A stretch of DNA of 20,513 nt from Myxococcales bacterium (GTDB taxonomy: Bacteria > Myxococcota_A > Polyangia > Nannocystales > Nannocystaceae): assembly GCA_031404295.1 (NCBI GenBank), contig JANNHJ010000361.1, positions 1-20,513 of the forward strand, in the 5' to 3' direction. The notes under the pieces are model-generated. The model made no database searches, was not told the DNA's origin, and worked only from the letters and a program-made list of their open reading frames with translations. This document shows, in pieces, positions 19,655 through 20,513 of this stretch (positions are counted from its first letter, which is position 1; each line of letters starts with the position of its first letter). Both the position numbers and the translations under genes were made by a program.

Positions 19655-20513
19655 CTAGTTCGGAACGTCTGCACCCGCGACGTCGGTAGCGCCACCCATA
19701 GTTGGGCGCGCCTCTCCATCGATGTCGGCCGCTGGGTCGCCTGTCATCCAGACCGCCGCTGTCGAAATCGCCGCTGGGGCTGCCGGCGTGAGGTGAAAGT
19801 CACCCGTCGCGTACCCCGCGAACCAACTCCCATCCGGCATCGGCCCCAACGCCGTGTTGCCAGGCATGTCCATCTCGAGCGCGCTATTCGATACCTGAAT
19901 CCCCGCACACACGATTTCGTCCGCGGCATCCCTCGAAGCAATGAGCGAGTTGCGAACGACCACGCCCGTGCCATCGACACATTGCACCGCGGGAGACGCT
20001 GTTGTCCCTCCGATTACCGAAGAGTACAAAATCCCCACTTCTCCCGATTGCACGACCATGGTGGGGACGTCCGACAGGTTGCTTCCGACAAAACTGTTTC
20101 GGAATTTGACTTGTCCACCCGAAATCAAGACCTCTCCATTGTTTTTGGCAAAACGAGAACGAGATATCCAGGCCGTGCAATTACTGCACCTAAACCCCAC
20201 GTCGGTGCCTCCCACGACATCAACACCGCCAAGAAATACTACCCCACCTTGATTTACATCAATCGTCGGTGCTCCCGCCGACAGAATCGTACCTGTGTCT
20301 GTCTTACTGATCAACGCGACTGTCCGACTGCCAAGAACCCCAAATTGCCCTTGATGTGCGTTGGGCGTCGCGAAATAAATAGTCCCCTCTTCCCCCCGCC
20401 CCCACATTCGCAAGCGCAGGCCCAAACTCCTTGTACGGATCCGCCTCCGTACCCGTCCCAGGCCCAACCACCGTCTGATCAACCCACCAAACCCGATCCA
20501 CATCCATACAAGC
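19655..20513 (-). CDS. Right-handed parallel beta-helix repeat protein (pectate-lyase-like fold), 5'-partial, since the frame is open to the window edge. There is an apparent frameshift in a G-tract near 20385-20400. Upstream of it the real frame is that of ORF 20304..20507 (…VWWVDQTVVGPGTGTEADPYKEFGPALANVGAGG…). GC is atypically low, roughly 50-57% versus about 70% for the flanks.
   Basis: It has Gly/Asn/Ser/Val-rich repeats (NSLIASRDAADEIVCAGIQVSNSALE etc.). It has the C-terminal GDFHLTP...DIDGEARP motif common in beta-helix proteins. It has an N-terminal Y-V-D-x-x-G-x-G-T-x-x-x-P-Y-K motif in the other frame. GC was counted on 60-nt samples. Confidence 0.65.
   Translation of the reverse strand, partial: LVWMWIGFGGLIRRWLGLGRVRRRIRTRSLGLRLRMWGRGEEGTIYFATPNAHQGQFGVLGSRTVALISKTDTGTILSAGAPTIDVNQGGVVFLGGVDVVGGTDVGFRCSNCTAWISRSRFAKNNGEVLISGGQVKFRNSFVGSNLSDVPTMVVQSGEVGILYSSVIGGTTASPAVQCVDGTGVVVRNSLIASRDAADEIVCAGIQVSNSALEMDMPGNTALGPMPDGSWFAGYATGDFHLTPAAPAAISTAAVWMTGDPAADIDGEARPTMGGATDVAGADVPN

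Follow-up and report, generated by a model that had tools for sequence, protein, structure and literature searches.

The GC-poor gene at the end of the 20,513-nt stretch of DNA analysed here (the window) is probably a frameshifted copy of a fast-evolving family of marine-myxobacterial beta-helix lipoproteins, and its low GC content appears to be long-standing and not the trace of a recent phage import. An earlier note on this DNA had read the gene as a recent horizontal acquisition, for example of a tailspike-like or polysaccharide-degrading protein from a phage or an island.

The compositional anomaly on which that reading was built is real. The GC content of the 500-nt segment at 20001–20500 is 0.544, compared with 0.62–0.72 in all 40 other 500-nt segments (40/40), and the 60-nt samples originally counted at 20041–20280 were reproduced (0.57, 0.43, 0.57 and 0.53). 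Across positions 1–19900, 300-nt segments have a mean GC of 0.677 (sd 0.029, minimum 0.603); the lowest 300-nt value inside the beta-helix gene is 0.503, approximately 6 sd under that mean. A GC3 baseline was taken from 573 thirty-codon segments of the 16 other genes in the window (mean 0.858, sd 0.076, minimum 0.60). In the middle of the beta-helix gene, GC3 is 0.37–0.57, which is 4–6 sd below the rest of the window, and A/T-ending codons are common there, as had been claimed. The trough extends over ~19950–20400 on the minus strand, with GC of 0.44–0.58 and GC3 of 0.37–0.67 in 30-codon segments. The claim of low GC across the entire gene holds for this interval and fails for the last ~200 nt, where GC3 climbs to 0.70–0.83. 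The depth of the GC3 deficit speaks for a recent import from a foreign donor, be it a phage tailspike or depolymerase gene, an island or a lower-GC bacterium, in which the GC content would be an un-ameliorated donor signature. Against it speak the end of the trough within the gene and the near-host GC of the C-terminal cap; with the further evidence presented below, we consider such an import unlikely.

The beta-helix module of the gene lies at 19655–20513 on the minus strand (stop codon at 19655–19657) and has ~283 codons after repair. The 5′ part of the gene, which in homologues encodes a signal peptide and a Cys-rich N-terminal domain, is located beyond base 20513. The gene does run past the window edge, as the earlier note stated: the edge residues ACMDVDRVWWV match ...GACM[DP]xxRVWWV, the end of the Cys-rich domain in full-length homologues, and the last two residues of that domain (AC, before MDVDRVWWV) are the only ones visible in the window. 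One extra G in a G5-C-G6 tract of the minus strand (20392–20403 in plus-strand coordinates), a +1 frameshift, splits the gene into an upstream frame that begins at the window edge with ACMDVDRVWWVDQTVVGPGTGTEADPYKEFGPALANVGAGG... and a downstream frame that runs from ~20392 (...EEGTIYFATP...) to ...DIDGEARPTMGGATDVAGADVPN*. Removal of one G yields ALANVGAGEEGTIYFATP, which is colinear with ALANVGNGEEGVIYFATP of a homologue and equal to it in length, so that the junction fits the homologue length. The repaired gene has 283 codons without a stop and carries 26 of the 26 family-invariant residues, in agreement with the initial description of the frame as broken yet repairable. The N-terminal motif is present as VWWVDQTVVGPGTGTEADPYKEF, with WVD in place of the reported YVD, and the C-terminal DIDGEARP motif was found in the translated gene. 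The cap (TAAVWMTGDPAADIDGEARPTMGGATDVAGADVPN; 19655–19800, minus strand), where GC is near that of the host and GC3 is 0.67–0.83, carries the motif that ends every family member. A 282-aa ORF that starts with ATG (19655–20503) was rejected as a real gene because its first ~40 residues are out of frame, upstream of the frameshift. Phase variation at the G run was likewise rejected, because the tract spans no more than 5–6 nt and homologues do not preserve it. A scan of 19300–20513 for consensus promoters and terminators gave nothing useful.

Eight matching proteins, and only these, were found in a collection of 5.8 billion sequences (35–54% identity, E-values of 7e-79 to 9e-32). Their alignment spans the whole beta-helix module and contains 26 invariant columns, cap included; the module of the window copy aligns from end to end and has the cap (consensus TGDPxxDIDGxxRPxxDGxxDYAGADVP, or more loosely TGDPxxDIDGxxRPxxDGxxDxAGADxP). 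The family architecture is a lipoprotein signal peptide, a Cys-rich N-terminal domain (Pfam DUF8331, PF27011) and a right-handed beta-helix of ~285 residues. Full-length members (P0004, P0008 and those encoded at L001:13587–15185 and L001:11825–13402) have a signal or lipobox-like start together with PF27011/DUF8331. Gene calling cut short the family entries of '285 aa': the frame remains open upstream of them, and a Thr/Glu-rich linker is encoded there along with a Cys-rich domain whose last residues are ...CNMSTGACM[DP]xxRVWWV. Compared with DUF8331 proteins of Nannocystaceae (P0004, P0008 and L001:13587–15185), the module of the window copy is 35–54% identical and ends in the same cap. Unlike these relatives, the window copy is frameshifted, and its visible side is without the kinase and 285-aa protein context of loci L001, L004 and L009.

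A genome scan with one genome per species identified 30 family loci, nearly all in Enhygromyxa salina (three strains), Paraliomyxa, Nannocystis and Nannocystaceae or Myxococcota MAGs, and the copies often occur two or three in tandem. Scanning of metagenome contigs added only distant members. One 39%-identity member (L025, JAJFGI010000282.1) is on a contig binned as Kiloniellaceae (Alphaproteobacteria), which points to a binning error or else to a transfer beyond Myxococcota. These searches found no orthologue of the window copy itself, the best match being 54% identical, and its history is therefore deduced from its clade.

Several neighbours of the family copies are recurrent. A Ser/Thr kinase gene and a gene for a ~285-aa membrane protein ending in Phe are found upstream (L001:15219–18930, L004:475–4252 and L009:2–2112). 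In Enhygromyxa, the copies are followed downstream by genes for a ~550-aa protein, a ~287-aa protein that ends in Phe, and an NtrC-like activator (L012, L013, L016 and L018). These neighbours may constitute a functional gene cluster. A gene for an Mrr-type restriction endonuclease directly follows the orthologues P0002 and P0003 (L001:10912–11823 and L054:1018–1941) and is in opposite orientation in the two genomes. The closest homologue, P0001, adjoins an RHS-type toxin C-terminus (...YYNRFRDFDPRAGQY...DPLGL) and a likely immunity gene (L005:1620–2936).

The fold proposed from the sequence, a right-handed parallel beta-helix, is borne out by the structure prediction. An AlphaFold2 model of the repaired protein, based on an alignment of nine sequences (pLDDT 77, pTM 0.77), is nearly all beta to residue 240, with predicted stacked three-strand coils and likeness to solved structures; the conserved last ~45 residues are its low-confidence part. 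Foldseek searches against the PDB and viral models (BFVD) returned generic beta-helix matches only, at 10–15% identity. The repaired protein had no match in Pfam-A (E ≤ 1) or NCBIfam, including Beta_helix PF13229, and neither did the full-length homologues, for which the Pfam set searched was one without PF27011; a precomputed PF13229 match is present in homologue P0005 only. A family profile found no beta-helix protein by sequence among the solved structures (PDB sequences), and a tectonin match to residues 4–51 from a PDB sequence profile was dismissed as spurious.

Known proteins that share the fold include the PL9 pectate lyase Pel9A (1ru4), the alginate lyase of Paenibacillus FPU-7 (6kfn), CE8 pectin methylesterases (1qjv, 1xg2), the autotransporter passenger Vag8 (7akv) and phage tailspikes (6c72, 4ru5), yet their identity to the window protein is just 9–18%. 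The scores of enzymes, adhesins and tailspikes are alike, and the fold therefore does not permit the assignment of a function. The likeness to PL1, PL6, PL9, PL31 and CE8 is at the fold level only, and catalytic motifs of CAZy families were not recognized in the window protein. From fold and lipoprotein architecture, which are the sole basis for a functional proposal, the product would be a lipoprotein of the cell surface or periplasm, with a glycan-binding or glycan-cleaving beta-helix.

That tailspikes share this fold favours a recent import from a phage, whereas the viral structural matches (E ~1e-3, 10–15% identity) are no better than those to other beta-helix proteins. Sequence searches also weigh against a phage, tailspike or foreign-donor origin. 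In IMG/VR (2.9 million contigs), none of 105 pattern matches was confirmed as a relative; tblastn against GenBank phages (50,697 records) gave no family match, and no relative was found among the plasmids of PLSDB (72,556). The homology search with the repaired ORF that the earlier note had suggested thus succeeded in retrieving the eight family proteins and returned no phage match. Its proposed look for tRNA, integrase and phage genes could be carried through in part: no tRNA was found within the 20,513-nt window, and no integrase or transposase families were found in the Pfam-annotated gene tables around L001 and L004, with the window ORFs scanned in part. Between the MVP gene and the main gene there are only a stump and a hairpin (described below). 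An exact 30-mer from the trough had no match in JGI metagenome contigs. The marks of a phage tailspike, namely phage homologues and a virion-binding N-terminus beside structural-gene neighbours, were absent, the latter as judged from homologues. The N-terminus of the homologues is a lipoprotein signal with a Cys-rich domain and not a virion-attachment domain, and their neighbours are kinase, 285-aa membrane protein, Mrr and NtrC-like genes. In addition, the genome loci of the homologues are nearly all in Myxococcota.

The position of the gene does indicate that it is accessory. MVP orthologues are abundant in Myxococcota, and the window homologue (~17006–19452, plus strand) was confirmed by its MVP_shoulder domain. 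Gene order from GGT over PAE, ECH and Bcp to MVP is colinear between the window and the complete genome of Nannocystaceae bacterium ST9, at a DNA identity of 75–87% (82–87% from PAE to MVP). This homology ends at 19453–19455, 3 nt after the MVP stop, and that to ST9 and three other relatives ends within ~30 nt of the stop. Beyond MVP, ST9 carries a ScoMcrA-like HNH gene, a DUF222-HNH gene and a 138-aa ORF (L055:12449–15490), and a JGI relative, L056, carries ECH and a XylR-like gene (12473–14655). In both, this cargo is followed by rsmD (Cons_hypoth95), an aminotransferase gene and a DAHP synthase gene. In the closest relative (L057/L058), with an MVP that is 91% identical, rsmD begins 49 nt after MVP, leaving an empty site (L057:2730–2778). 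No family member was found at the MVP-rsmD loci of ST9, L056 and L057/L058, and the family loci were not found to share synteny with the neighbour genes of the window.

These comparisons bear out the claim that the gene was acquired, or is accessory, at this position. The MVP-rsmD junction is thus a strain-variable slot in this Nannocystaceae lineage, with the beta-helix genes as the cargo of the window strain. The absence of the gene in three of three informative relatives, the closest of which has an empty site, is also the positional evidence in favour of a recent import. For the preferred reading, a member of a resident family, the window copy would have come from the Nannocystaceae gene pool and entered the slot through insertion or rearrangement. 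The far boundary falls outside the window, so the data do not discriminate between a rearrangement, an insertion of one or two genes, and the insertion or transfer of a whole cluster. A second variable spot was observed between ECH and Bcp, which are adjacent in the window: ST9 has a 972-aa kinase/TPR gene there (L055:6484–9402) and L060 a gene for a trypsin-like protease (L060:1227–2738).

Acquisition at a site and recency of the low GC content are separate matters, and the clade of the window gene bears on the second. Neighbour joining places the window gene with L005, L001_10001, L008_12, L009, L001_13590 and L004, and every member of this clade has a GC3 of 0.57–0.72; clades farther off reach values of up to 0.99. 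The four hosts with enough flanking sequence (L001, L004, L008 and L009) have a flank GC of 0.65–0.70. L005 is a 2.9-kb contig with 56% GC throughout, and the location of the closest homologue (L005–L007) on short contigs of 56–59% GC throughout, beside an RHS-type toxin tip, is a point for a recent import, possibly from a lower-GC donor lineage. Elsewhere, as far as the contigs reach, the low GC is confined to the module. Across L001, GC changes from 72 to 56 to 69%, and the low stretch is the beta-helix module; GC falls on entering the module in L004 and L009, rises on leaving it in L008, and rises towards the cap in the window. The Cys-rich anchor and the cap are at normal GC in L001, and the window displays the cap only.

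The low GC also occurs in vertical, syntenic copies. The gene order of kinase, 285-aa protein and beta-helix gene is common to L001, L004 and L009, with identities of 63–82% for the kinase, ~50–61% for the 285-aa protein and 33–50% for the beta-helix module, and the modules at these syntenic loci all have low GC3. The orthologue pair P0002/P0003 retains a GC3 of 0.65 and 0.72 at a dS of 0.46, and with a dN/dS of 0.13 its low-GC coding sequence is under purifying selection. Since the trough occurs across the clade, including syntenic loci of high-GC genomes, it can be considered a long-standing property of the variable module. A recently imported gene would not account for the same trough in syntenic copies or its persistence at such a dS. 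In a family specific to Nannocystaceae or Myxococcota, low GC is not a measure of recency, and that step of the earlier note is not sustained. Vertical low-GC orthologues in relatives, which it had named as evidence against its own reading, exist for the clade (syntenic copies in genomes of 65–70% GC) and were not found for the exact copy, which has no detected orthologue.

The locus itself looks decayed, as judged from three lesions: the frameshift of the main gene, a stump of a second family copy and a frameshifted MVP. The stump (19456–19593, minus strand) consists of the last 45 codons of a copy (WFNAAPAELAEAALWLSGDPETDIDGEARPTTDSTADYVGADIPN*; GC3 0.89), is ~70% identical to the 3′ end of the main gene, and has its stop codon 3 nt from the MVP stop. 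Since family members usually stand in tandem arrays, its sequence is taken to be the remnant of a tandem neighbour. Between the stump and the main-gene stop, at the truncated end of the stump, lies a strong, imperfect hairpin (19570–19652, minus strand; −58.2 kcal/mol, z = −5.1), an imperfect palindrome with 28-nt arms that also contains a 23-nt tandem repeat at 19580–19625 (GCCGCGTTGAACCATGCAGATGT / GCCGGGTCGAACCACGCAGATGT). Either a terminator or the scar left by the deletion could explain this element. A 5-nt tandem duplication (GGCTC-GGCTC, 17988–17997) breaks MVP into two frames; among the MVP indels relative to the ST9 and L056 orthologues, it alone has a length not divisible by three, and it reflects either true pseudogenization or a fault of the assembly. 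Positions 8456–13129 are 100% identical over 4674 nt to Logan contig SRR20217199_49332, which ends short of the beta-helix gene; the window strain is therefore present in the public run SRR20217199. This identity to an independent assembly makes random indel errors seem unlikely, and it covers neither frameshift. The main copy was probably inactivated recently.

It might be argued that the lesions explain the composition, i.e. that AT-biased mutation after the frameshift lowered the GC content of a formerly GC-normal gene. The broken frame of the main gene, the frameshifted MVP and the reduction of the sister copy to a stump agree with such decay, as does a low-GC paralogue in L001 that has a 1-nt deletion in two independent assemblies; a GC→AT mutation bias is established in bacteria (PMC2936529). 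On the other hand, one-base removal restores 283 open codons at 52–58% GC with all invariant residues, the intact clade members P0004 and L001_13587 share the trough, and the orthologue pair described above has a dN/dS of 0.13. Decay would also not halt at domain borders. We therefore regard pseudogene decay as a quite improbable cause of the trough. In the L001 paralogue, the deletion is located in the N-terminal domain at ~9290–9300, upstream of P0002 (GGGG-TGGG versus GGGGTTGGG in two paralogues), and is identical in L001 and L002, which were assembled from different samples. The 104-aa gene called at 9523–9837 of L001 is spurious, being antisense to the Thr/Glu-rich linker.

An assembly chimera, in which the copy of a lower-GC organism was joined to the contig through the conserved C-terminal motif, is very improbable. 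Such a join would suit a window that is probably metagenomic (4.7 kb being 100% identical to the SRR20217199 Logan contig), an anomaly at its extreme end and a family whose copies have conserved ends in common. However, GC3 climbs gradually over ~400 nt in one continuous reading frame, and the conserved ends are ~72–80% identical in DNA, which is too low for k-mer joins. Moreover, the trough is also found in an isolate, Enhygromyxa salina DSM 15201 (L011 and L012), and in L001 and L002, which are identical contigs from independent samples.

The paralogues are mosaics in which the ends have been homogenised and the core varies. In L001, two paralogues are 96–99% identical over the N-terminal 600 nt (GC 0.65–0.74), 43–60% identical in the beta-helix core (GC 0.51–0.63) and 78% identical over the last 150 nt, and the tandem copies of E. 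salina have blocks of 100% identity beside blocks of 41–54%. Gene conversion probably keeps the anchor domain and the C-terminal cap alike between paralogues. The beta-helix core is hypervariable, and the diversity of the family may stem from diversifying selection or from cassette exchange via the conserved ends. A candidate cause of the low GC is the AT-biased mutation mentioned above, together with less recombination-linked GC bias (PMC4450053) where the divergence of the core prevents recombination. Divergent paralogues L026 and L027 have a GC3 of 0.88–0.99, and some blocks of 100% identity have a GC of 0.57–0.64; low GC is thus not strictly tied to divergence, and the proposed recombination cause is weak. 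A simple link from recent gene conversion to high GC was not borne out across the family and is kept as a weak hypothesis only.

More speculatively, the DUF8331/beta-helix genes could be a polymorphic cassette system of marine myxobacteria, in which the anchor and the cap serve as recombination handles, the hypervariable and persistently GC-poor module is swapped between tandem copies or strains, and the window copy is a displaced, decaying cassette; we hold this to be a doubtful proposal at present. If it were true, the module could recognize prey, kin, phage or polysaccharide.

Hypervariable, GC-poor surface loci are present in otherwise uniform genomes, such as the wzx-wzy genes of O-antigen and capsule loci and polymorphic receptors, e.g. 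TraA of Myxococcus. By analogy, the family resembles these loci in its conserved flanks and divergent centre, a GC content persistently under that of the genome and putatively surface-exposed, Cys-rich products. It differs from them in having no sequence relationship and, compared with TraA, a reversed domain order. Below-genome-GC accessory genes are common, and the finding may be of little surprise to specialists. Still, a sharp trough in GC and codon usage within a 68% GC genome is not by itself evidence of recent or phage import; in the present case, what it marks is the module that varies within a lineage-specific family of surface proteins. With its tandem and mosaic copies, the family of DUF8331 anchors and beta-helices is a candidate diversifying surface system of myxobacteria.
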